A stretch of 11,872 bases of DNA. Source: Candidatus Aenigmatarchaeota archaeon (GTDB lineage Archaea; Aenigmatarchaeota; Aenigmatarchaeia; QMZP01). Location: positions 1 through 11,872 of the forward strand of contig JAVZYR010000018.1 in the NCBI GenBank assembly GCA_038999435.1, in the 5' to 3' direction. Positions 1 through 10,006 of this stretch are shown piece by piece. Position numbers and translations under genes: made by a program. The stretch's first letter is position 1, and each line of letters opens with the position of its first letter. Under the pieces are notes generated by a model that did not search any database, had not been told where the DNA came from, and was given only the letters and a program-made list of their open reading frames with translations.

Positions 1-48
1 TAGGAGAAGCGTGCCCGCGAGCGCTTTCTTCTTGAAAGAAAGGGCTCA
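1..48 (-). other. T-loop (59/60) intron of tRNA-Leu(CAG), partial; begins with module A
   Basis: After TTCGAA the sequence is TGAGCCCTTTCTTTCAAGAAGAAAGCGCTCGCGGGCACGCTTC..., matching the start of the Leu(TAG) and Glu(CTC) T-loop introns. Confidence 0.8.
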
Positions 49-66
49 TTCGAACCTGCGAAGGCA

Positions 67-97
67 ATGCTTGCAATCCGCGAAGCCGCGGATTGTA
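67..97 (-). other. 31-nt intron in the variable-arm loop of tRNA-Leu(CAG)
   Basis: GCTT-AG^T-ACAATCCGCG...CGCGGATTG-C-AAGC-AT^T: a 4-bp helix GCTT/AAGC between two 3-nt bulges. Removal restores the arm GGC-TTAGT-GCC. Confidence 0.82.
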
Positions 98-192
98 CTA
101 AGCCACACGGCCCTGAACCGTGCCCCTTTGACCACTCGGGCACCCCCGCATAACTATTTTTGATTTAATAAAAATAAGTGCGGGGGGTAGGA

Positions 193-239
193 TTCTCTCT
201 GGAAACCCTCAAGGTTTCCAGCCATCCGGGAGCTGTTTC
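193..239 (-). repeat. Module D1+D2 repeat (copies at 193-239, 854-900, partial 923-965, and 7991-8037 on the + strand)
   Basis: GRAACAGCTMCCGGATG-GCTGGAAACCTTGAGGGTTTCCAGAGAGAA. D2 is identical in all three full copies, and D1 differs by single substitutions. Confidence 0.95.
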
Positions 240-335
240 GTTTCGCTCACAACGCTTCCGGAAGCGGTAAGCTCCCTCACAAAGTCAGACATCATTCAGA
301 GCATTTATGCTCGGTGCGCGTCTGGCTTTGTGTTT

Positions 336-368
336 CCGCGAGCGCTTTCTTCTTGAAAGAAAGGGCTC
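336..368 (-). repeat. Module A hairpin repeat (copies at 15-47, 336-368, 695-727 and, lacking AAG, 7930-7959 on the + strand)
   Basis: GAGCCCTTTCTTTCAAGAAGAAAGCGCTCGCGG is identical in three copies and has a 3-nt deletion in the fourth. It folds as GAGC-C-CTTTCTT/AAGAAAG-C-GCTC. Confidence 0.95.
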
Positions 369-387
369 ATTCGAACCTACGAAGGCA

Positions 388-418
388 ATGCTCACATTTC
401 GCGATATTGCGAAACGTG
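388..418 (-). other. 31-nt intron in the variable-arm loop of tRNA-Leu(TAG)
   Basis: GCTT-AG^C-ACGTTTCGC-AATATC-GCGAAATGT-GAGC-AT^T: two 3-nt bulges around a 4-bp helix, with a 9-bp inner stem. Confidence 0.85.
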
Positions 419-486
419 CTAAGCCACACGGTCCTAAGCCGTGCCCCTTTGACCACTCGGGCACCCCCGCTACGCCCCGGCCGGGA

Positions 487-504
487 TTTTCTTACCAAAG
501 CGCA
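487..504 (-). other. 18-nt T-loop (59/60) intron of tRNA-Glu(TTC)
   Basis: GG-TTCA-AA^TGCGCTTTGGTA-AGAA-AA^T-CC, with TTC/GAA pairing. The exact register is ambiguous because AAAT flanks both ends. Confidence 0.78.
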
Positions 505-525
505 TTTGAACCCGGGTCTCCGGCT

Positions 526-562
526 CTCTTCTTTCATTGCAAAGGCTCAAACCTTTCGAAAA
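526..562 (-). other. 37-nt canonical (37/38) intron of tRNA-Glu(TTC)
   Basis: CTTT-CG^T-TTTCG...TGAAA-GAAG-AG^A-GCCGG, a BHB with central helix CTTT/GAAG. Confidence 0.85.
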
Positions 563-617
563 CGAAAGGCCGGTATACTTGACCGGACTATACTACCGGG
601 GCATGGGTCCGGCCGGA

Positions 618-628
618 TTTTCGAAATT
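618..628 (-). other. 11-nt T-loop (59/60) intron of tRNA-Val(GAC)
   Basis: GG-TTCG-AG^AATTT-CGAA-AA^T-CC: a perfect TTCG/CGAA helix in a bulge-helix-loop motif. Confidence 0.82.
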
Positions 629-672
629 CTCGAACCGGCGATTTCCGCGACGTCAACGCGGCGTCTTAACCA

Positions 673-726
673 TTTTGCAGGAATGTTCTTCTTTCCGCGA
701 GCGCTTTCTTCTTGAAAGAAAGGGCT
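673..726 (-). other. ~54-nt D-loop (about 15/16) intron of tRNA-Val(GAC), containing module A
   Basis: Insertion between GTCTAG and TGGTTAAGAC. Positions 692-727 are identical to 333-368. Boundaries are uncertain by about 1 nt and the outer BHB is weak. Confidence 0.72.
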
Positions 727-767
727 CTAGACCACGGACCCATATTTATTATTGTTTTTTCTTTTAA

Positions 768-838
768 TGGGCCTGCCCGGAATTGAACCGGGTTCTCTGC
801 TGTGTGAAAGCAGCGTCCTGCCTTTAGACTACAGGCCC
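768..838 (-). tRNA. tRNA-Val(CAC), intronless, 71 nt
   Basis: GGGCCTG-TA-GTCT-AAAGGCA-GGAC-G-CTGCT-TT CAC AC-AGCAG-AGAA-CCCGG-TTCAATT-CCGGG-CAGGCCC-A. Confidence 0.9.
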
Positions 839-853
839 TCGCCAGGGGCAGGA

Positions 854-997
854 TTCTCTCTGGAAACCCTCAAGGTTTCCAGCCATCCGGGAGCTGTTCC
901 GCTTCGCTCCACAACGCTTCCACTCTGGAAACCCTCAAGGTTTCCAGCCATCCGGGAGCTGTTCCGCTTCGCACGCTTTTTTGCCTTAAAGCGTGCA
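854..997 (-). other. 144-nt composite T-loop (59/60) intron of tRNA-Ser(CGA)
   Basis: TTCG-AA^TGCACG...AGAG-AA^T-CC. Its 3' 47 nt match the ends of the Leu(TAG) and Glu(CTC) introns, and it contains an internal 50-nt duplication. Confidence 0.85.
858..972. repeat. Perfect 50-nt direct repeat (858-907 and 923-972) inside the Ser intron
   Basis: ctctggaaaccctcaaggtttccagccatccgggagctgttccgcttcgc occurs twice, 15 nt apart. Confidence 0.95.
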
Positions 998-1066
998 TTC
1001 GAACCTGCACGGGCCGAAGCCCACTCGCTCTCGAGGCGAGCGCATTCACCATTCTGCCACCCTGGC

Positions 1067-1094
1067 AATTAATTATAAGATATTTAGATTTAAT
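1067..1094. promoter_or_regulatory. Putative back-to-back promoters for tRNA-Ser (-) and ncsA (+)
   Basis: A 28-nt, almost purely AT spacer between divergent starts, with TATA-like stretches on both strands and no Shine-Dalgarno sequence. Confidence 0.5.
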
Positions 1095-2012
1095 ATGAAA
1101 TGTGAATGCGGCAGAAAAGCAATCATACATCGCCATTACGAAGGTTCTGCGCTCTGCCCCCGACATTTTATTCTATCATTTGAAAAAAGGATAAAGAAAA
1201 CAATAAGAAGATACAATATGTTGAAATCAGGTGATAGGATTGCTGTAGCTATTTCTGGTGGTGCAGACAGCTTAAGCCTTCTGAATGTTATGCATAAAAT
1301 TGTTTCACCAAGGCATGATATGAATATGTTTGCGGTATGCATAGATGAGGGTATAAAGGGCTACAGGGATGTAACAATAAAAAGGGCAAAAAGATTTTGC
1401 AAAAGGCTTGGGATAGAATTACATATTGCAAGCTTTGCTGATACATTTGGAAGGACAATGGACCAAAAAGTTTCTGAAGTTGGAAAAGAAAATGCATGCA
1501 TGTATTGTAGCATAGGTCGGAGATGGCTATTAAACAGGACTGCACGGGAACTTGGTGCTACTCGAATTGCAACAGGACATAATCTAAATGATGAAGCAGA
1601 GACAATCCTGATGAATTGGATAAGAGGTGATATTGCAAGGGCTGCACGATATGGAGCAATTACTGATTTAACCCTTACAAAGACGAAAACAAAATTGCTC
1701 ATCCCAAAAATAAAACCACTAAGAGAGACGCCTGAAAATGAGTGCACACTCTATGCAAAACTTAAAAAAATGGGCACCACAAGGCGGGTATGTCCATACA
1801 AAAGTGGTATAAGGCGTGATGTGTGGATTTTTTTGAGAAAATTTGAGAAAAAGCATCCTGGAACAAACTTTTCTATTCTTCACACATTTGACAAAATCCT
1901 TCCTCTGCTAAGAGAATATTCAGAAAGTATTGAAGGACCTGTAATGACATGTGATAAATGTGGTGAAATTTCAGCACAACCTGTATGCAGGCGCTGTCAG
2001 TTATGGCCTTAA
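1095..2012 (+). CDS. ncsA: tRNA 2-thiolation protein, TtuA/Ncs6/NcsA family (PP-loop ATPase)
   Basis: N-terminal Zn finger (CEC...CPRH), PP-loop SGGADS, CMYC, GHNLND, KPLR...E, CPY and C-terminal CDKC...CRRC. Start moved to ATG 1095 because the upstream ORF part overlaps tRNA-Ser. Confidence 0.88.
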   Translation: MKCECGRKAIIHRHYEGSALCPRHFILSFEKRIKKTIRRYNMLKSGDRIAVAISGGADSLSLLNVMHKIVSPRHDMNMFAVCIDEGIKGYRDVTIKRAKRFCKRLGIELHIASFADTFGRTMDQKVSEVGKENACMYCSIGRRWLLNRTARELGATRIATGHNLNDEAETILMNWIRGDIARAARYGAITDLTLTKTKTKLLIPKIKPLRETPENECTLYAKLKKMGTTRRVCPYKSGIRRDVWIFLRKFEKKHPGTNFSILHTFDKILPLLREYSESIEGPVMTCDKCGEISAQPVCRRCQLWP

Positions 2013-2384
2013 CATTACCCTGCCTGCAATCCTCCAATAATCAATCTCCTGTCCTGCTGTGATTTTACCTTTAAGTTCTTCAGGTATGGTAACCTCGAAA
2101 ACAGAGTAGTCTGTCATATCCATAAGCTGTGCAATATTTTCAGAAACAGAAAGAACCTGGGCCTTTTTCTTTTCTATTACAGGTACCATCACAGTTGCTG
2201 ATGTTGGTTTTAGTATATAATGCCTTTTGTTATCAAAGAGCCCCATACACTCTATTCTTGCTTTTGTCGAGCCATGCTTTCCTGGCTTTGAAATTGTTAT
2301 TGAAACAACCCTACATGGCTCGCCATCTGCCATTACATAGTTTCCCTCATTTAGATCTTTGACAGGGACTGGTTTTTCTGCCAT
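2001..2384 (-). CDS. eif5a: Translation factor aIF5A
   Basis: Hypusination loop KPGKHGSTKAR, followed by IEKKKAQVLSV...QLMD; 127 aa. Overlaps the ncsA 3' end convergently by 12 nt. Confidence 0.96.
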   Translation of the reverse strand: MAEKPVPVKDLNEGNYVMADGEPCRVVSITISKPGKHGSTKARIECMGLFDNKRHYILKPTSATVMVPVIEKKKAQVLSVSENIAQLMDMTDYSVFEVTIPEELKGKITAGQEIDYWRIAGRVMLRP

Positions 2385-2408
2385 ATGATATTTTGCCTTA
2401 AACTATAT

Positions 2409-3314
2409 TTAAAGAAAAGGTGACAGGAGCAATGGGAGTATAACCGTTGCATCCCCTTCTATCGTTACATGTTTTGCTTTTGGGCTTATCTTTCCCCATG
2501 ATATCGCCTCTCTCGTTCTTGCACCTGAAAGGCTACCATCCCATTCTACTGCTGTTGTGACATAAACTGCTGCATCAAGCCCACCTGAAAATTGAGACCA
2601 CCATATCACATGATGTTTTGAGATACCACCACCTACAATCAGCGCGCCTTTTTTTTCTTTTCCTAACATCTTTGAAAGAAGGAATTTTTCATCAAGCCAA
2701 ACATCGACATTAAAATCTGGCCTATCTTGTCTGAAAAGGGTTATCTGAAAGCCAACTGCACCATCTGTTATACCTGGCACAATGACGGGTATTTTATTTT
2801 TCCATGCCCAATATAATATCGAATCCTTATTCAATTGCTTGCCAATTTCCCAGCAAAGCTCATATGTAGAAAGGGTCTTTTTTTCTTTGTAAATCTGTTC
2901 CAATATTGGCTGAAGCCTTTTCTCAATAATTTCACCATAGCTTTTATCTGGAACAAATATGTTGCCAAGCCTTGATATGCCTTCTTTTCTTAACTTTACA
3001 TCATCTGCCATAAAACTGCCTTGAAGATATGGCCTAAAGCTACGTGCCAAATCGTGGTCTATTGTACCGCATGTTGTAATGATAAGATTAAAAAGCCCTT
3101 TTTTGACACAATCTTTAATGAGCCCTCTAATACCTGTTGCAACAATGCAGGCAGGAAATGATAGCACCCTTATATCATAGCGAGATATATCTTTCAATGT
3201 ACTAAAACCATCTGCAATTCCTTTTGCTACAAACCCACCTGCCTTTTTGTATTCTTCTAAAAGTTGTTCTATTGTAGTTTGTCTATTTATGGATATGTCA
3301 TTTACCTTTTTCAT
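2409..3314 (-). CDS. dys: Deoxyhypusine synthase
   Basis: Motifs RLGNIFVP, PGITDGAVG, GGGISKHH and DGSLSGARTREAISWGK (catalytic Lys); adjacent to aIF5A. Confidence 0.96.
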   Translation of the reverse strand: MKKVNDISINRQTTIEQLLEEYKKAGGFVAKGIADGFSTLKDISRYDIRVLSFPACIVATGIRGLIKDCVKKGLFNLIITTCGTIDHDLARSFRPYLQGSFMADDVKLRKEGISRLGNIFVPDKSYGEIIEKRLQPILEQIYKEKKTLSTYELCWEIGKQLNKDSILYWAWKNKIPVIVPGITDGAVGFQITLFRQDRPDFNVDVWLDEKFLLSKMLGKEKKGALIVGGGISKHHVIWWSQFSGGLDAAVYVTTAVEWDGSLSGARTREAISWGKISPKAKHVTIEGDATVILPLLLSPFL

Positions 3315-4083
3315 AAAAATGATAACTTAATATTTTTTTAAAAAGGTTTGCAGCAGTGCATGCAGTAATGCATCCAACCTTATCAGCTGAACATTCAACG
3401 ATGTCAAAACCAATTATACCAAGTCGGCATATCCTTTTTATCATATTAAGCATATCTGTATAGCCAAGTCCTGCAGGCTCTGGTGTGCCTACATCAGGTG
3501 CTATGCTTGGGTCAAGGACATCAAGATCGATTGTAAGATAGACAGGTCCCTTTTTTGGTAGACCTACAATTGCTGGCCTTTCCTCTTCATTCCATGCCCT
3601 ACATGAAGGCTGATAAACATCACACATCTTTGATGCATGCCATGCCCATGTTAGATGCGCAAATTTATTTCCCATCCAATCGGGTAGCATATCTCTGTGT
3701 GCATCCATATGCACAACTGTTTTTGGTTTTAATGCCTTGATTATAGCAAGGGTTACAAGATGGTCTCCTCCAAAAAATACTGGTAAGCCACTGCTCTGCT
3801 CTCTTGCTTCTTTTATCGTCTCGATAATTCTCTCCTCTGTTATCGCCCAATCACCCTGCACAATATCAACATCTCCAAGGTCACAGAATTTTAGCTTTAG
3901 CGGATTGAATTGCATTTTTGTGTCGAAACCAATAAGACCTTTTATTGCCTCCCTAATTAGCACAGGGCCATATCTTGTTGGTCTCCCTGTTGATGTAGAA
4001 TCCCATGGTATGCCAAGAATCCATACATCTGCCTCTTTCAGGGGCCATTCAAAATCAAATGTTTTCTTTGTATAGAGCATCAT
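3298..4083 (-). CDS. speB: Agmatinase / ureohydrolase-family protein
   Basis: Metal-binding motifs GGDH, DAHRD, TIDLDVLDP and GTPEPAG, plus N-terminal GIPWDSTS...YGP. Confidence 0.88.
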   Translation of the reverse strand: MMLYTKKTFDFEWPLKEADVWILGIPWDSTSTGRPTRYGPVLIREAIKGLIGFDTKMQFNPLKLKFCDLGDVDIVQGDWAITEERIIETIKEAREQSSGLPVFFGGDHLVTLAIIKALKPKTVVHMDAHRDMLPDWMGNKFAHLTWAWHASKMCDVYQPSCRAWNEEERPAIVGLPKKGPVYLTIDLDVLDPSIAPDVGTPEPAGLGYTDMLNMIKRICRLGIIGFDIVECSADKVGCITACTAANLFKKILSYHFYEKGK

Positions 4084-4655
4084 TTCATTATCCTTTCTTT
4101 TACAGAGTTGAAATGTGATACAATGTCTTCGGGTTTCATTGAATGTAGATATTCAGAGAAATACCTTTTGTACTTTTCAGGTTCTGTCTTCATCTTTTCA
4201 GCCCACTTTGCGATATGCTCACCTCTTAATCTCTCCTCACTTGGCAGTATCTCAGGTGAATGAGGAATAGCAATGCCTGCATCCAAAATGCCCTTCAGCA
4301 CAGCATATATCCTCGTGCCTTTTACATTATCATAAAGGCCTGTATCTAAAATGCCTCTTTTTATTCCCTTTTCTTTTGCCCTTTTGCCTACAAGAAGGCC
4401 GACAAGATATGCAGCTGGTATGTTTCCGCATGCAACCTTCCATCCAAACTGCTTTAATTGGCATGAATGTGCACTTGTAATGACAATATCACCCTCCGTT
4501 CTATGCTCAATGACCTGGCATAAAATGTTTCGATTTGACCTTCTTACAACAAACCTTGGTAGACCTGATTTTAGAAGCTTTAACCTTGTTCTGTAATCTG
4601 TTTTTCCTTCTCTTCTTCTCCTATGCGGAACGCGATACTTTGGCCCTCCTTTCAT
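4080..4655 (-). CDS. rpl18: 50S ribosomal protein L18 (uL18, archaeal type)
   Basis: GPKYRVPHRRRREGKTDYRTRLKLL, GNIPAAYLVG, RLRGEHI; AGGTGAG ribosome-binding site upstream. Confidence 0.96.
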   Translation of the reverse strand: MKGGPKYRVPHRRRREGKTDYRTRLKLLKSGLPRFVVRRSNRNILCQVIEHRTEGDIVITSAHSCQLKQFGWKVACGNIPAAYLVGLLVGKRAKEKGIKRGILDTGLYDNVKGTRIYAVLKGILDAGIAIPHSPEILPSEERLRGEHIAKWAEKMKTEPEKYKRYFSEYLHSMKPEDIVSHFNSVKERIMK

Positions 4656-5103
4656 GTTTGCTCACCTTTTTTGCCTTTATCATATCAGCTTTTCTTGCAT
4701 ATAATAGAAGGTGTTGCTTTGTTCTGAAAGCACCACCTTTTGCCATTTTATAAAGCTTATTATATGCCTCCTTTGATATCATGTCCTTTGCTCTCAAATC
4801 TGATAAAAGTCGGCGAAGGGCCCTTATCCTTTTTATCCATTGCTGTTTCTTGACTGCACGGACCCCTTTTCTGCTTCCTGGCCCTTTACGTCTCCCTCGT
4901 TGTTTTTGTTCTGTCCTTTTTTTAGAGAATGCTTTAGATGTTCCCTTTGCCTGAATTTTGTAGATAATACCTTTTCTAATAAGCCTTCTTATATCCTCCC
5001 TTGTAAGCGCTTCTGCTACTTCTTTTTCAGATTTTATCCTAACCCTTGATATACCGCATTTGAGTATCTGTGCAGCAATTCTTTTTTGAGCAAGATATGC
5101 CAT
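4621..5103 (-). CDS. rpl19e: 50S ribosomal protein L19e
   Basis: QKRIAAQILKCGISRV, TREDIRRLI, GRRKGPGSRKG, WIKRIRALRR, LYKMAKGGAF; GGAGGTGA ribosome-binding site. Confidence 0.96.
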   Translation of the reverse strand: MAYLAQKRIAAQILKCGISRVRIKSEKEVAEALTREDIRRLIRKGIIYKIQAKGTSKAFSKKRTEQKQRGRRKGPGSRKGVRAVKKQQWIKRIRALRRLLSDLRAKDMISKEAYNKLYKMAKGGAFRTKQHLLLYARKADMIKAKKVSKHERRAKVSRSA

Positions 5104-5681
5104 TATTCACCTCCAAAGTCTTTTATGCTGTGTGTGAATTCAGCTTCCTTTTTTATCTTTTTATTTGTTTTTAGAATCTCTCTTGCAATTATCCACAGCG
5201 CAAGTGCGATACTTTTTTTTGCATTGTTATTCATTGGAATTATCAAATCTATATCATTTACTTCATTAAAGCTGTTAGCAAGTGCTAGAATTGGAATATG
5301 TTTCTTCTTTGCCTCTTTTATGGCCTGTGCATCAAGCATAGGATCTGTTACAAACACAACATCTGGCTCAAAAAAATTGTTAAATGAAGGGTTTGTTAAT
5401 GTTCCAGGAGGGAATCTACCTGTTATTGCCTTTGCACCAATAACCTCAGCAAATTTTTTTACTGGCTGGATAGCAGACTCCTTTCTTGCAACGATCAAAG
5501 GCTTTTGAAAACATGAAAGCCATCTCCCTGCTATGCCAAACCTCTCGTCTATCTTTTTAAGATTAAATATTATAAGCCCATCTTCTCTTATTTTGTATAC
5601 AAACTGCTTAAGATAAGGTGTACACGTTTTCATACCTATATGCACACCTGCACTGAGATATTCCTTTCTTTCTACCAGCAT
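5103..5681 (-). CDS. rps2: 30S ribosomal protein S2 (uS2)
   Basis: YLSAGVHIG, GRFPPGTLTNP, EPDVVFVTDP...DAQAIKEA, DLIIPMNN; GGAGG ribosome-binding site. Confidence 0.96.
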   Translation of the reverse strand: MLVERKEYLSAGVHIGMKTCTPYLKQFVYKIREDGLIIFNLKKIDERFGIAGRWLSCFQKPLIVARKESAIQPVKKFAEVIGAKAITGRFPPGTLTNPSFNNFFEPDVVFVTDPMLDAQAIKEAKKKHIPILALANSFNEVNDIDLIIPMNNNAKKSIALALWIIAREILKTNKKIKKEAEFTHSIKDFGGE

Positions 5682-5715
5682 ATGACCTCCAGAATAGATT
5701 ATTTAAAAAATCATT

Positions 5716-6852
5716 TTATAAATTTGCCATTGTTGGTTTTTTGAATTGAGACCATAGTGCAAGAAGCCTGTTAAACTTTGGCATGTCATTCATACCAAAT
5801 TTTGCTATCTTTGCACGCCAAGCAACAGCCAAATCTGCTATCCAGAAGTCCTCTGTCTCATGCGAACGGTGTGATGGTATAATCTCCCATTCTGCAGACC
5901 TTGCAATACTAACTGCCTTCATTGCCGATGTAAGTGTTCCAACTTGATTTGGCTTTATTATAATCCCATTTGCAGCTTTTTCCTTTACACCACGTCGAAC
6001 CAAGCTCGGATTTGTGCAGAAAATATCATCGCCAACAATGAGTGCTGATTTGCATGCCTTTTTAAGTGCTTTAAATTCAGAAAATGTCACGCATGGGTCC
6101 TCGATGTAAAATATCTTATATCTCCTTATCATATCAGCAATAAAATCTAAATGTCTATCAGGGCTAAGAAGCTTCCACATTGCTTTGTAAGCGTATTTGT
6201 TGCCATCCCATAGCCGAGATGAAGCGCAATCTATGCCAAGCCTTACACCCCAATCATCTGCAATCTCAGATAAAAAATCAAGCGTTTTTATATCATCGAG
6301 TTTTGCCATCCATGCACCCTCTATGTTTTGACCAAGCAGCAGGCCTCTTCTCTTAAGCTCATCACCAATAACATGCCATATCTCTATACCAAGCCTTATA
6401 TCATCAACAAGCTCACCTGTTTTCGGAAGTATGAGAAATTCTTGCCAATCTGTTTTTCCTCCATGTGCACCTCCCCCAATTACATTGATAAGTGGATGTG
6501 GAAATGTACCTGTTCTTTTTTCTCCTTCAATCTTCCATAGTTCGCCACCAAATCTTGCCCTTGCAGCAGCGATAGATAGGGCTAAAGCCAAATTCCCACC
6601 AATTCTTGAGATGCCAAGCCTTTCAAAAACATCATCAATCTCTGGCCATACCTTTCCTTTTATTGCTGCCTTTATCTCTGAAATATTTTTTTCTATCTCT
6701 CTCATCGGCGCTGCTCTGACTTCATGTACACCTTTTGATGTCCCAAAAGGCACAGAAGCAGTCCACCATCTTCCTTTTATTTTTACAGCAGCCTCTATAC
6801 TTTCCTTCCTACTTGTGCAAAAAACGGTTCTTATTTTTATATCTGAAATCAT
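5716..6852 (-). CDS. eno: Enolase (short, divergent)
   Basis: VPFGTSKGVHE, GGAHGG..WQEF, GIDCASS, YIEDP, VGDD, IIIKPNQVG, SHRSHETED; sits in the usual rpoK-eno-rps2 position. Confidence 0.85.
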   Translation of the reverse strand: MISDIKIRTVFCTSRKESIEAAVKIKGRWWTASVPFGTSKGVHEVRAAPMREIEKNISEIKAAIKGKVWPEIDDVFERLGISRIGGNLALALSIAAARARFGGELWKIEGEKRTGTFPHPLINVIGGGAHGGKTDWQEFLILPKTGELVDDIRLGIEIWHVIGDELKRRGLLLGQNIEGAWMAKLDDIKTLDFLSEIADDWGVRLGIDCASSRLWDGNKYAYKAMWKLLSPDRHLDFIADMIRRYKIFYIEDPCVTFSEFKALKKACKSALIVGDDIFCTNPSLVRRGVKEKAANGIIIKPNQVGTLTSAMKAVSIARSAEWEIIPSHRSHETEDFWIADLAVAWRAKIAKFGMNDMPKFNRLLALWSQFKKPTMANL

Positions 6853-6854
6853 AT

Positions 6855-7052
6855 TCAGCCAGGATACCTTCTTTTAATATCTATCGGTATTACCTCTGCT
6901 TCCCACTCAAGTTTTGCAATCTCAAGTGGGTCTGTAATCCCTTTTGGTACTTTTACAAGAACAGGGCTACCTTGTGCAATCTGAAGGGCCCTGGCTGCAA
7001 TTATCCTTACCTTCTCATACTTTGTGTAGCTATCTTTTGACCTCATAATCAT
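6855..7052 (-). CDS. rpoK: DNA-directed RNA polymerase subunit Rpo6/K
   Basis: YTKYEKVRIIAARALQIAQGSPVLV...DPLEIAKLE...IPIDIKR; ATGA overlap with the upstream stop codon. Confidence 0.95.
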   Translation of the reverse strand: MIMRSKDSYTKYEKVRIIAARALQIAQGSPVLVKVPKGITDPLEIAKLEWEAEVIPIDIKRRYPG

Positions 7053-7831
7053 CCTATGTATCTTAGCTGCTCTTTTTTTACAGGAGGTCTTTCTTCCTCT
7101 TTTGCAAGCTGTGATATTGCCTTTTCTTGTAACTCTTGTATCTTTTTTATCAACCTTTCCATCTCTTTTACCCTTTTATCAAGTTTTGACATATCAATCT
7201 TAATTTCAAGAATCTTTGAAAGTATATTTAGGACTGCCTCAGCAGCTCTCGGATCAGCAACGATAGGAAAGCCTGATGTCTCACCAAGTAGACAAAGGCC
7301 ATCTATACCTCTTTGTTTACCAAGACCAAGAAGTATGCCAGCAGCACCAACAATATAGCCAACCTTTTCACTTGTATTGAAGTTTATACCAAATTCCTTA
7401 TATTTTTCAACAATAGATTTGTCTGTTGCCGCACCATAGACACGCGGCTTTTCCTCTATCTCTCCTGTTGCAAGGCCGCCAACTGTAATTATTTCTTTTA
7501 CACCAATTTTTTGTGCCAAGTCAACAATTTTTTCCATAACCTCATAGTGACCCTGTGATGTCATAGACTGGCAATCACCTGTCACAAATACAACATCACG
7601 TTTACCTTTTAGATAATAAAATTTGACTTTCAAAAGCCTTATCTCCCATTTTTCATGTATTACAACGAATGGAAAGAAATGTTCAGAGTAAAGTTCTGCA
7701 AAGAGCTTTGCACCTGTTTCTTGAATTATATAATCAACACATATCCGACCAACATTTCCAATCCCTGGTAAACCTTCTACAAGCAATGGATTTTGGAGTT
7801 TTGGTTGCTCAAAAATATTCAGCGTTGTCAT
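7049..7831 (-). CDS. PAC2-family (proteasome assembly chaperone-like) protein
   Basis: LVEGLPGIGNVG, TGDCQ, ITVGG, IVGAAGILLG, CLLGET...DPRAA and C-terminal YIG. Start moved to ATG 7831 because the longer ORF runs through tRNA-Glu. Confidence 0.88.
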   Translation of the reverse strand: MTTLNIFEQPKLQNPLLVEGLPGIGNVGRICVDYIIQETGAKLFAELYSEHFFPFVVIHEKWEIRLLKVKFYYLKGKRDVVFVTGDCQSMTSQGHYEVMEKIVDLAQKIGVKEIITVGGLATGEIEEKPRVYGAATDKSIVEKYKEFGINFNTSEKVGYIVGAAGILLGLGKQRGIDGLCLLGETSGFPIVADPRAAEAVLNILSKILEIKIDMSKLDKRVKEMERLIKKIQELQEKAISQLAKEEERPPVKKEQLRYIG

Positions 7832-7867
7832 GTATTTGAATATAATTTCTATATATAAAAATACAAT
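7832..7867. promoter_or_regulatory. Putative divergent promoters for PAC2 (-) and tRNA-Glu(CTC) (+)
   Basis: Minus-strand TTTATATA at 7859-7852 (-28 to -21 from the ATG, so probably a leaderless mRNA). Plus-strand AATATAAT at 7839-7846 (-29 to -22 from tRNA G+1). Confidence 0.55.
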
Positions 7868-8051
7868 GCCCCCGTGGTGTAGTCCGGTTAAGCATCCAGG
7901 CCTCTCGAGCCTGAGACGCGGGTTCAAATGAGCCCTTTCTTTCAAGAAAGCGCTCGCGGGCACGCTTCCGGAAGCGTTGTGGAGCGAAGCGAAACAGCTA
8001 CCGGATGGCTGGAAACCTTGAGGGTTTCCAGAGAGAATCCCGCCGGGGGCA
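7868..8051 (+). tRNA. tRNA-Glu(CTC) with a 109-nt T-loop intron (7929-8037)
   Basis: Acceptor GCCCCCG/CGGGGGC+A, anticodon arm CAGGC-CT CTC GA-GCCTG, T-stem GCGGG/CCCGC. 184-109 = 75 nt. Confidence 0.93.
7929..8037 (+). other. 109-nt composite T-loop (59/60) intron of tRNA-Glu(CTC): modules A'-C'-D1-D2
   Basis: TTCA-AA^TGAGCCC...AGAG-AA^T-CC, with the same modules as the Leu and Ser introns about 7 kb away. Confidence 0.85.
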
Positions 8052-8094
8052 AAATCTTAACAATGAAGTTATATTTTTAGAAACAAAATTAAAT

Positions 8095-8856
8095 ATGCCA
8101 TACAATCATGCCAGGGCATGGCTTGAGGCAAAAGCTGAATCAGCAGCACCAAAACCGATTCCTCCAAATAAGATTGCAATCATATCAGATATACATTCAA
8201 ATCTTGATGCATTAGATGCTGTGCTTAAAGAGATAAAGGAGAGTAAATGTCAGCTCATTTTATGTACAGGTGATATCATAGGTTATGCCACAGAGTGCAA
8301 TGAATGCTGTGAGATTGTAAAGAAAAATGCACATGTAATTGTTCAAGGCAATCATGATGCAAATGTTGACTTTCGGCGCATTGAATGGTTTAATCCTGAA
8401 GCAGCTGCAGCACTTAGATGGACTGAGGCAAAGCTGACAAGACCAAACAAGGCATGGCTTCTTGGACTTCCTGTTGAATGGTATGGGCAAATATTAGGGA
8501 GAAAGATATACATGGTGCATGGTAGCCCATATGACCAGTTATATGGCTATGTAATGCCAAATACCGACAGGCATACATTCAGAAAATGGCTAAATGAAAA
8601 AAGGGCACACATCATCATCATGGGCCATACACACATCCCTTTTGTTGAAAAGATGGAGCAAGGCCTGATAATAAATGCAGGTTCTGTTGGACAGCCAAGG
8701 GATGGCAATCCAAAGGCATGTTGGATAGAGCTGATACTTGATAAACTTGAAGCAAAGATACACAGGGTTAGCTATAACATAGAAATGACCGCTGAAAAAA
8801 TCCTTGAGCAAAACCTGCCTGCATGGCTTGCTGAGCGGCTTTATGATGGTTTGTGA
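8095..8856 (+). CDS. Calcineurin-like metallophosphoesterase (YfcE/MJ0936-like)
   Basis: ISDIHSN, CTGDIIGY, QGNHD, MVHGSP, GHTHIP, NAGSVGQPRDG. Start moved to ATG 8095 because the longer ORF begins inside the tRNA intron. Confidence 0.88.
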   Translation: MPYNHARAWLEAKAESAAPKPIPPNKIAIISDIHSNLDALDAVLKEIKESKCQLILCTGDIIGYATECNECCEIVKKNAHVIVQGNHDANVDFRRIEWFNPEAAAALRWTEAKLTRPNKAWLLGLPVEWYGQILGRKIYMVHGSPYDQLYGYVMPNTDRHTFRKWLNEKRAHIIIMGHTHIPFVEKMEQGLIINAGSVGQPRDGNPKACWIELILDKLEAKIHRVSYNIEMTAEKILEQNLPAWLAERLYDGL

Positions 8857-8909
8857 TAATTGAATTCCTAAGAAATAGTTTTTTATCAAGCTTTAAATAA
8901 ATACATTTT

Positions 8910-9491
8910 ATGAAAACAATTGAAAATTTAGCAAAGGCGTTTATTGGTGAAAGCCAAGCAAGAAATAGATACACATTCTATTCTAAGATTGCCAAAAAGG
9001 AGGGATTTGAGCAAATAGCAGAAATTTTTCTAATTACAGCAGAAAATGAGAGAGAGCATGCAAGTTGGCTGTTTAGATTGATTAATGAATTAAAGAAAAG
9101 GGGTAAAGAAAATCTAAAAGAGATAAAGGTTGATGCAACAGTTCCAACTATTCTTGGCACAACTATTGAAAATCTAAAGGCGGCAATTGCTGGAGAAAAT
9201 TATGAATACACCAAGATGTATCCAGAATTTGCCAATGTTGCTGAAAAAGAAGGATTTACAGATATTGCAAAAAGATTACGGGCAATCGCTAGGGCAGAAG
9301 AGCATCATGAGGAGAGATTCAAAAAACTTCTAAAAGTGGTTGAATCAGGAACGGTATTTAAAAAGGAAAAAGAGGTCTGGTGGGTTTGTCGTGAATGTGG
9401 ATATGTTCACTTTGGAAAACAGCCGCCTGAGAAATGCCCATCCTGTGACCATAAAAGAAGTTTTTACCAAATTAAATGTGAGGAATATTAG
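8910..9491 (+). CDS. rbr: Rubrerythrin
   Basis: [39 protein letters not shown] and a C-terminal rubredoxin-like CRECG...CPSC. Confidence 0.96.
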
Positions 9492-9494
9492 CTT

Positions 9495-9869
9495 ATGACA
9501 GAACAAAAGCAAATCTATAAGTGCAATATATGCGGAAATATAGTTGAGGTGCTACATCCTGGAGTAGGGCAGCTTGTATGTTGTGGACAACCAATGCAAC
9601 TTATGAAAGAGAATACAACTGATGTTGGTAAAGAAAAACATGTTCCTGTGATTGAGAAAACGGCAAATGGGATAAAAGTAAAAGTTGGCTCTATAGCACA
9701 TCCTATGGAAGAAAGGCACTATATTGAATGGATAGAAATAATCGCTGATGGCAGGGCTTGTAAAATTTTCTTAAAGCCGGGAAATAGGCCAGAGGCAGAG
9801 TTTAAAATAAAAGCAGAAAAGATTGTGGCGAGAGAATATTGCAATGTTCACGGTTTGTGGAAATCATAG
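9495..9869 (+). CDS. dfx: Desulfoferrodoxin (2Fe superoxide reductase)
   Basis: YKCNICGN...[31 protein letters not shown]. Confidence 0.96.
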
Positions 9870-9926
9870 CCAACCTAATTGAATTTTTAATACTAATTAC
9901 AAATTTAATATGGGCCCGTAGCTCAG

Positions 9927-9955
9927 AGTTGGTCGTGTCTGCGGTCAACGAGCAT
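9927..9955 (+). other. 29-nt D-loop (15/16) intron of tRNA-Ile(GAT)
   Basis: GCTC-AG^A-GTTGGTCGT-GTCT-GCGGTCAAC-GAGC-AT^T-GG: a 4-bp helix between two 3-nt bulges. Confidence 0.85.
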
Positions 9956-9977
9956 TGGTTAGAGCACCACGCTGATA

Positions 9978-10006
9978 TCTTTCTCAAATAAATAGAATGG
10001 TTTGAA
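9978..10006 (+). other. 29-nt canonical (37/38) intron of tRNA-Ile(GAT)
   Basis: CTGA-TA^T...TTTG-AA^A-CGTGG, a relaxed BHB. Removal restores a 7-nt anticodon loop. Confidence 0.82.

Follow-up and report, generated by a model that had tools for sequence, protein, structure and literature searches.

A 177-nt T-loop insert in an archaeal tRNA-Leu(TAG) gene is probably a single mosaic intron of a genome-wide module family

The tRNA-Leu(TAG) gene studied here lies near one end of an 11,872-nt contig (JAVZYR010000018.1, C18 below) of a Candidatus Aenigmatarchaeota archaeon, and its T-loop is interrupted by a 177-nt insert. The window, by which we mean this whole contig at its full length, belongs to an assembly (GCA_038999435.1) of 549 kb in 30 contigs that is 86% complete and has 38% G+C. 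We observe the position of the insert, the homology of its modules to sequences elsewhere in the genome, the breakpoints between those modules, the signature at its 3' end and the presence of an epsilon2-like splicing endonuclease (EndA) gene. From these we infer that positions 369 to 193 (minus strand) probably form a single mosaic intron at position 59/60, a member of a genome-wide family of the relaxed hBH (bulge-helix-loop) kind, which would be excised whole by an epsilon2-type EndA. Splicing would thus occur in one step, and recombination at the DNA level would be the source of the mosaic.

The gene extends from 180 to 470 on the minus strand, as do all features of it described below, and was delimited by closure of its acceptor stem and T-stem, by the Rfam tRNA model and by ARAGORN after removal of the insert. 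Its T-arm reads GTAGG-TTCGAA, then 177 nt (369 to 193), then T-CCTAC and the acceptor strand, with the insert sitting between TTCGAA and TCCTAC. T-loop bases 54 to 59 (TTCGAA) occupy positions 370 to 375, TTCG being the exon strand of the central helix, while the 3' exon (180 to 192) contributes T60, the 3' strand of the T-stem (CCTAC) and the 3' strand of the acceptor stem. An insertion at 58/59 fits equally well, since an A is repeated at both junctions. Deleting 369 to 193 in silico led ARAGORN to call a tRNA-Leu(tag) with a standard T-loop, T-stem and acceptor stem restored. The intact gene was missed; ARAGORN and Rfam at the gathering score saw tRNA-Val alone in the window, and the Rfam tRNA model gave Leu(TAG) 26.9 bits for its 5' part only (378 to 470). 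The insert folds with a minimum free energy (MFE) of -67.7 kcal/mol (z = -4.75), a value that none of 200 shuffles matched.

In the predicted splicing substrate, the 5' bulge consists of the AA of TTCGAA and the first intron base. At the 3' end of the intron, TTCG and AGAG form three of four pairs, followed by the bulge AA|T and the T-stem. Exon bases U54-U55-C56-G57 would pair with the AGAG near the intron 3' end, the substrate being completed by the bulge AA|U60 together with the T-stem, and the 5' cut would fall after A59. The gene also carries a second insert, a 26-nt hairpin in its variable arm (393 to 418). A different 26-nt hairpin occupies the same position in the neighbouring tRNA-Leu(CAG) gene (window 72 to 97, minus strand); the two are unrelated in sequence and have identical flanks (TGGCTTAG ... 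AGCATTGCC).

The T-loop site of Leu(TAG) is interrupted in 25 of the 33 tRNA genes that we catalogued, by inserts of 11 to 306 nt. The catalogue derives from a stem-closure search that returned 49 rows, of which 33 loci were kept by eye; the rows dropped either gave a T-arm already listed a different 5' end or lacked a tRNA-like 5' part. A more permissive search gave 2269 closures, mostly false, and the stricter search was used. Removal of the T-loop insert in silico produced an ARAGORN-recognisable tRNA in 23 of the 25 cases, while ARAGORN finds 10 tRNA genes in the unmodified genome; standard tRNA finders overlook most tRNA genes of this organism. All 25 true 3' ends read N-G-R-R-[A/C/T]-A before T60, and the tetramer at -6 to -3 forms three pairs with the TTCR of its own gene in 14 genes and four pairs in 11. 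The 25 T-loop inserts have the geometry of a relaxed hBH substrate.

The enzyme that would act on such substrates is encoded at C7:3-527, the only splicing-endonuclease gene found in the genome, truncated by the contig start. All 174 residues of the fragment align to the ARMAN-2 epsilon2 enzyme (PDB 4fz2; E = 4e-55), covering its residues 219 to 387, that is, the C-terminal 169 residues, and the match is far better than that to any alpha4, alpha'2 or alpha-beta enzyme. The open reading frame that follows the fragment on C7 is family B DNA polymerase-like, judged by sequence only. According to PMC3239211, ARMAN-2 epsilon2 EndA cleaves a 13-nt 59/60 hBH intron in vitro and tolerates relaxed motifs. 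As far as that text and the 4fz2 entry describe it, the ARMAN-2 pre-tRNA-Cys(GCA) intron shares with the introns described here the insertion site (59/60), the relaxed motif of T-stem, bulge and 4-bp helix with T-loop bases, and the enzyme type. It differs in length, with 13 nt against 177 nt in Leu(TAG) and up to 306 nt elsewhere in this genome; unlike in the ARMAN-2 case so described, 25 of 33 tRNA genes use the site here, with introns that are mosaics of common modules. An epsilon2-type EndA would remove the whole Leu(TAG) insert in one step, and the exons would then be ligated.

A BLAST search of the 177 nt against the genome (E < 1e-3) returned 38 blocks elsewhere, distributed over 10 contigs and all located in tRNA genes or in an insert of the 23S rRNA gene. 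Their ends cluster at intron positions 32/34 (14 blocks), 37 (7), 103 (6) and 110 (7), and BLAST was likewise used to tile the introns into modules. At the 5' end of the Leu(TAG) intron lies module a (336 to 368; intron 2 to 34), a pyrimidine/purine hairpin closed by GAGC/GCUC that has 100% identical copies in many tRNA introns. Next comes AAA (333 to 335; intron 35 to 37), the first bases of a purine tail whose remainder is separated from them by module b, a 54-nt hairpin (279 to 332; intron 38 to 91) placed between AAA and the GARGGAGC of module e. Module e (260 to 278; intron 92 to 110) was defined by the fold and by BLAST tiling. The 3' terminal module d (193 to 259; intron 111 to 177) has contiguous copies of 94-97% identity in 13 other places, and includes both the hairpin at intron 149 to 171 (window 221 to 199) and the 3' splice motif AGAG-AA (198 to 193).

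The MFE fold places hairpins at intron 2 to 30, 38 to 92 and 149 to 171, along with a helix between GGGAGCU (94 to 100) and AGCUCCC (134 to 140) that encloses a small palindromic hairpin. Module e thus supplies GGGAGCU to pair with AGCUCCC of module d, and its CGCUUCC forms the palindromic hairpin with the start of d. Taken together, e and d would form a three-way junction as well as a terminal hairpin, and they would carry the 3' splice motif.

The 3' 22 nt of module a have 19 exact copies in the genome, which continue in three ways: six with CGGAAAGAAG..., three with CGGAAA and module b, and ten with a GCACGC hairpin (f or c). The CGGA-AA that follows module a in Leu(TAG) is the start of the purine tail of a hairpin-plus-tail cassette (GGAAAGAAGG). 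The tail is intact after six of the 19 copies; in Leu(TAG) it is split by module b into GGAAA and GAGGG, with AAA before b and GAGGG after it. Module b occurs in four places (Leu-TAG, Pro-CGG, Leu-TAA and the 23S insert) and is lacking at otherwise collinear a-e and f-e junctions. Whichever of its two left contexts it has, it occupies the same site, just 5' of GARGGAGC in module e. This distribution suggests that module b is a nested insertion, a 54-nt hairpin lodged within the cassette tail, and not a second member of a tandem row.

The cassette was also found outside this genome. A pattern made from the core of module a (intron 5 to 25, one free position) finds 39 metagenome loci, and AAAGAAR lies within 60 nt downstream in 20 of the 27 distinct instances, mostly 15-18 nt away. 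Several of these core hairpins are in tRNA introns, placed either in T-loops or, in tRNAs with a CAT anticodon, at the canonical site, and an Rfam search of eight loci with the cassette detected tRNA only. Relatives of the same family and the same order have the module a hairpin in T-loop introns and rRNA. Module a followed by GGAAAGAAGG has both the core and the tail of this cassette of DPANN tRNA and rRNA introns, with the difference that in Leu(TAG) the 54-nt hairpin b breaks into the tail after GGAAA. The first 37 nt of the intron therefore look like one copy of a widespread intron-borne cassette, and module a would be a copy of the hairpin-plus-purine-tail element known from the tRNA introns of many small archaea. 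In one relative (G029, loci L003 and L009), hairpins much like module a and ending ...GCGCTCGCGGAAAA lie outside any tRNA, one immediately downstream of a protein-coding gene, the other in an apparent intergenic spacer, which indicates that in relatives the cassette is not confined to introns.

Compared with 40 other genomes, the 177 nt gave weak matches of at most 41 nt (E 7e-4 to 5e-3) in five, four to module a and one in apparent coding sequence. A genome of the same genus (71% complete) had no match to the intron, and its Leu gene has an unrelated 36-nt insert. Of the 16 tRNA-Leu genes parsed in relatives, 9 carry a 59/60 insert (30-117 nt) that is unrelated in sequence to this intron and has the same kind of end. 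The lack of a match in the same genus and the unrelated Leu inserts of relatives suggest that intron turnover is fast.

Within the genome, the module family fills 17 T-loop introns, two D-loop introns and one 23S rRNA insert. The T-loop introns begin with module a in 14 of 17 cases and with the f hairpin in the other three, and 13 end with module d, which never occurs upstream of a, b, e or f. In their interiors, the pair formed by one hairpin (a or f) and e is repeated, in orders such as a-c-d (109-112 nt), a-e-a-f-e-d-d (289 nt) and a-f-b-e-a-f-e-c-d (306 nt). The order a-b-e-d of Leu(TAG) recurs in tRNA-Pro(CGG) on C2, and the two introns are 97% identical with private differences. Such a constrained order, in which a leads and d closes, is easier to reconcile with internal duplication and recombination than with modules that arrived independently at a single site. 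Tandem copies of module d occur in the T-loop introns of tRNA-Ser(CGA) (window 854 to 972, minus strand) and, at C11:12275-12407, of the gene at C11:11978-12420. Their junctions read ...TTCCAGAGT/GGAAGCG or ...TTCCAGAAT/GGAAGCG, and the first of these strings recurs in a loop variant of the c hairpin; TTCCAGAGTGGAAGCG is common to the tandem d-d junctions and that variant. A short repeat shared in this way points to unequal recombination.

Copies of the family are also present outside T-loops. The D-loop intron at C3:7277-7422 consists of module a, the purine tail and module e, and that at window 605 to 741 (minus strand) has module a and the tail intact, with the sequence beyond them diverged; the anticodon of the latter gene was read by eye. 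We found no convincing bulge-helix-bulge (BHB) register for either D-loop intron. In the 5' domain of the 23S rRNA gene, a 210-nt insert (C8:321-530) between GAACTGAAAC and ATCTTAGTACC comprises a-e, a-b-e and then a diverged hairpin, so that the a-tail-e unit occurs twice, and positions 1-505 of the Rfam large-subunit (LSU) model span 714 nt at this gene. The family would have spread among tRNA genes, in T-loops and D-loops, and into 23S rRNA, and its copies would have been rearranged in the DNA itself, as elements were inserted, duplicated in tandem or recombined with one another. Two further candidates for membership were discarded: a gene for a repeat protein accounts for the repeat-rich end of contig C1, and a 15-nt match on C19 lies in apparent coding sequence. 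A second intron module family, g, comprises about 25 nt around a AGCUCUUUAGAGCU hairpin and is unrelated to the a-b-e-d modules; it is common to 38-nt and 234-nt T-loop introns and to an insert that interrupts a further tRNA gene in its 5' part (C1:66761-66891, C4:11633-11979 and C11:9588-9894).

Window positions 1 to 1066 (minus strand) hold six tRNA genes head to tail, five of them interrupted and some with two inserts: Leu(CAG), Leu(TAG), Glu(TTC), Val(GAC)-like, Val(CAC) and Ser(CGA). The first of these (1 to 149) is cut by the contig end within its own T-loop intron, which begins with module a (block 1 to 34).

An alternative to the mosaic intron is that the insert grew by stepwise accretion, with the purine tails of cassettes mimicking the 3' splice motif, so that old 3' sites now lie inside the intron and are perhaps still used. 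The CGGA-AA after module a makes four of four pairs with TTCG and comes immediately after a hairpin whose first base lies 1 nt past the 5' cut, and CGGAAA|T is the true end of four of the nine Leu introns of relatives. The relaxed motifs that epsilon2 EndA accepts, according to PMC3239211, make cleavage at the internal CGGA-AA conceivable. Against this, CGGAAA belongs to the cassette tail wherever the cassette sits, including D-loops and 23S rRNA, and 10 of the 19 module a copies are followed by C[GA]GGCA instead. Accretion as the history of this insert is, in our view, unlikely. The wider proposal is that long 59/60 introns in this lineage grow in this way through mimicry of NGAR-NA by mobile cassettes, so that any incoming module could provide a splice site or bury one, and that the promiscuous epsilon2 EndA still cuts the internal pseudo-sites, with stepwise splicing and several small circular intron RNAs from one tRNA gene as the outcome; we regard this as a little less likely again.

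It is also improbable that the intron, or module b in particular, hosts a functional small RNA released by splicing, such as an L7Ae-binding k-turn or a box C/D-like RNA. Module b does have a terminal stem followed by CCA-GA opposite CUGA, as well as an internal CUGA and AUGAUG, which we compared with the box consensus by eye. However, a search of window 1 to 1100 with Rfam (E <= 5) gave only tRNA and chance-level hits, no guide spacer was seen between the C'-like and D-like boxes in a reading by eye, and module b was not found in 40 relatives. A precedent exists in the box C/D RNA of an archaeal tRNA-Trp intron, as PMC4090602 relates, where a long intron likewise contains a separate structured element; in contrast to that case, there is no C/D family match here, and module b is only a candidate for a functional role.

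A first-pass annotation of the same DNA had proposed that five former stand-alone 59/60 mini-introns, units A, B, C, D1 and D2, were stacked in tandem at this site, each with a vestigial 3' half of a BHB. We consider this very unlikely, although part of its arithmetic holds. The five units tile the insert exactly (37 + 61 + 32 + 17 + 30 = 177), and their terminal tetramers CGGA, AGGG, CGAA, CGGA and AGAG pair with TTCG at 4, 3, 4, 4 and 3 positions. Such matches are frequent, however. Under the pairing rule (at least three of four pairs with TTCG, G-U allowed), 46 of the 172 possible end positions of the 177-nt intron qualify, as do 648 of 2918 internal positions (22%) in 18 long T-loop introns, and shuffled sequences comply nearly as often. 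We ascribe this to the purine-rich linkers between hairpins, since purine-rich tetramers tend to pair with U-U-C. Of 33 internal hairpin ends, 9 are directly followed by a qualifying tetramer (5 of the 18 distinct contexts), compared with 118 of 642 (18%) when dinucleotides are shuffled; if a slip of 1 nt is tolerated, the figures are 11 of 18 distinct contexts and, for the shuffles, 36%. The hairpin ends used for this comparison were taken from MFE folds, not by eye, and the 18 contexts are variants of about six modules, three of which qualify. The claim that anti-TTCG tetramers follow hairpins more often than in controls was thus not upheld, their frequency being near that of the shuffles.

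The boundaries between units gave a similar result. The annotation had expected unit ends to coincide with breakpoints of homology, and this is the case at 37|38, where seven blocks end. The other three internal boundaries (98|99, 130|131 and 147|148) have no breakpoint within 1 nt on either side, and conserved blocks extend across each of them (3, 13 and 14, respectively). Whole introns stacked at the exon junction would leave junctions of the form ...NGAR-NA followed by T. The a|f junction differs, reading GCGG|GCACGC where exact stacking would give ...CGGAAA|T GCACGC, and the full true-end signature with the usual first T occurs at 5 of 2918 internal positions, none of them a proposed boundary. 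The fold disagrees as well, in that the MFE structure matches the blocks defined by homology and not the five units: D1 has no hairpin, the B|C cut falls within a helix strand, and the C|D1 cut falls in the loop of a GGAGC/GCUCC hairpin that is kept in other copies of d. A pairing of the start of unit C (CTTAC) with the T-stem GTAGG was set aside as coincidence, because tRNAs whose T-stems differ contain this variant too. The same modules and purine linkers are found in the D-loop introns and the 23S rRNA insert, beside exons that are not TTCG.

Nor are units found alone, since none of the 25 T-loop introns of the genome equals one. The idea that unit A was once an intron has a counterpart in the tRNA-Leu genes of relatives, where two of the four introns ending CGGAAA|T, 48 and 53 nt long, consist essentially of a single pyrimidine/purine hairpin followed by this end; whole introns of this architecture therefore exist, but with sequences unlike those of this genome. 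Within the genome, introns without a (3 of 17) and without d (4 of 17) suggest that the composite may join two intron types, and such a fusion could have taken place. What stands of the composite view is that long T-loop introns are built of recurrent hairpin modules, some of them in tandem; stacking of five stand-alone units is supported for the first boundary only and is mostly not borne out.

Several observations weigh against a single mosaic intron that is removed in one step. Both splicing itself and the number of its steps are conclusions that we infer. Only three pairs, including a G-U, make up the central helix at the real 3' site, and in the MFE fold the two ends of the intron are not joined by an h' helix; the relaxed hBH type was assigned because this helix is absent. 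The proposed internal ends at 37, 130 and 147 have four of four pairs, better than the true end, and belong to a class of just 12 of 172 positions; cryptic cleavage could occur at these ends. The catalogue of tRNA genes depends on a filter that demands TTC[GA]A and perfect stem closure, with curation by eye. Finally, the sequence is a metagenome assembly, in which modules 96-100% identical over about 19 loci could be mis-joined. Five sequencing runs contain the window (71-92% of its sampled words present), all of them DNA and labelled hot springs metagenome; among the runs on record, none of RNA was found to contain window 1 to 10000. Contigs of four public DNA runs, aligned on window 1 to 1100, break at every repeated module, and none of them spans 193 to 369; the joints listed for these contigs are cross-matches between repeat copies. 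With contigs breaking at the repeats, no recombination intermediate or strain variant was seen.

That the module order is an artefact of mis-joined reads from repeat-bearing tRNA loci is nevertheless highly improbable, even though C18 itself ends inside the Leu(CAG) intron: a-b-e-d recurs in tRNA-Pro(CGG) with private differences, the modules are shorter than typical reads, pieces of public contigs join the 3' exon to d (118 to 208) and the 5' exon to a (354 to 468), and copies of d swapped between loci would leave the architecture unchanged.

Introns within introns are familiar from Euglena plastid twintrons, in which self-splicing group II or III introns lie within others and are removed sequentially. 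The insertion of one element into another resembles that of module b in the cassette tail of the Leu(TAG) intron. Unlike the inner element of a twintron, module b has no BHB-like ends in a reading of its flanks by eye, and we rejected it as a nested BHB intron because the flanks CGGA-AA|C ... CTTT-GT|G cannot form a 4-bp helix. The transposed tRNA-intron families of Thermoproteales (Fujishima et al. 2010, as cited in PMC4090602 and 10.64898/2026.10.13.758758) are another comparable system. In these families, near-identical introns are likewise spread across isotypes and positions (T-loop, D-loop). Here, in contrast, modules smaller than an intron combine, nest and duplicate in tandem, and also fill a 23S insert; the EndA of this DPANN-type archaeon is epsilon2 and not (alpha-beta)2. 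The literature offers 59/60 hBH introns (PMC3239211), the Thermoproteales intron families and the tRNA-Trp box C/D RNA (PMC4090602). Our searches of full-text literature, which did not extend to supplements and subscription papers, returned neither BHB introns in tandem or stacked arrangement nor any account of the hairpin-plus-tail cassette.

These findings bear on the origin, spread and growth of tRNA introns in archaea. PMC4090602 presents "intron transposition" in Thermoproteales as the only well-known case of spread, with its mechanism unknown. The genome described here offers an unusually clear picture: three quarters of its catalogued tRNA genes are interrupted at one T-loop site, and a few hairpin modules build its long introns, nesting, duplicating and apparently moving between tRNA and rRNA genes. 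This makes intron growth by the gain of modules testable in an organism in which one of the modules is a cassette found in many small archaea.

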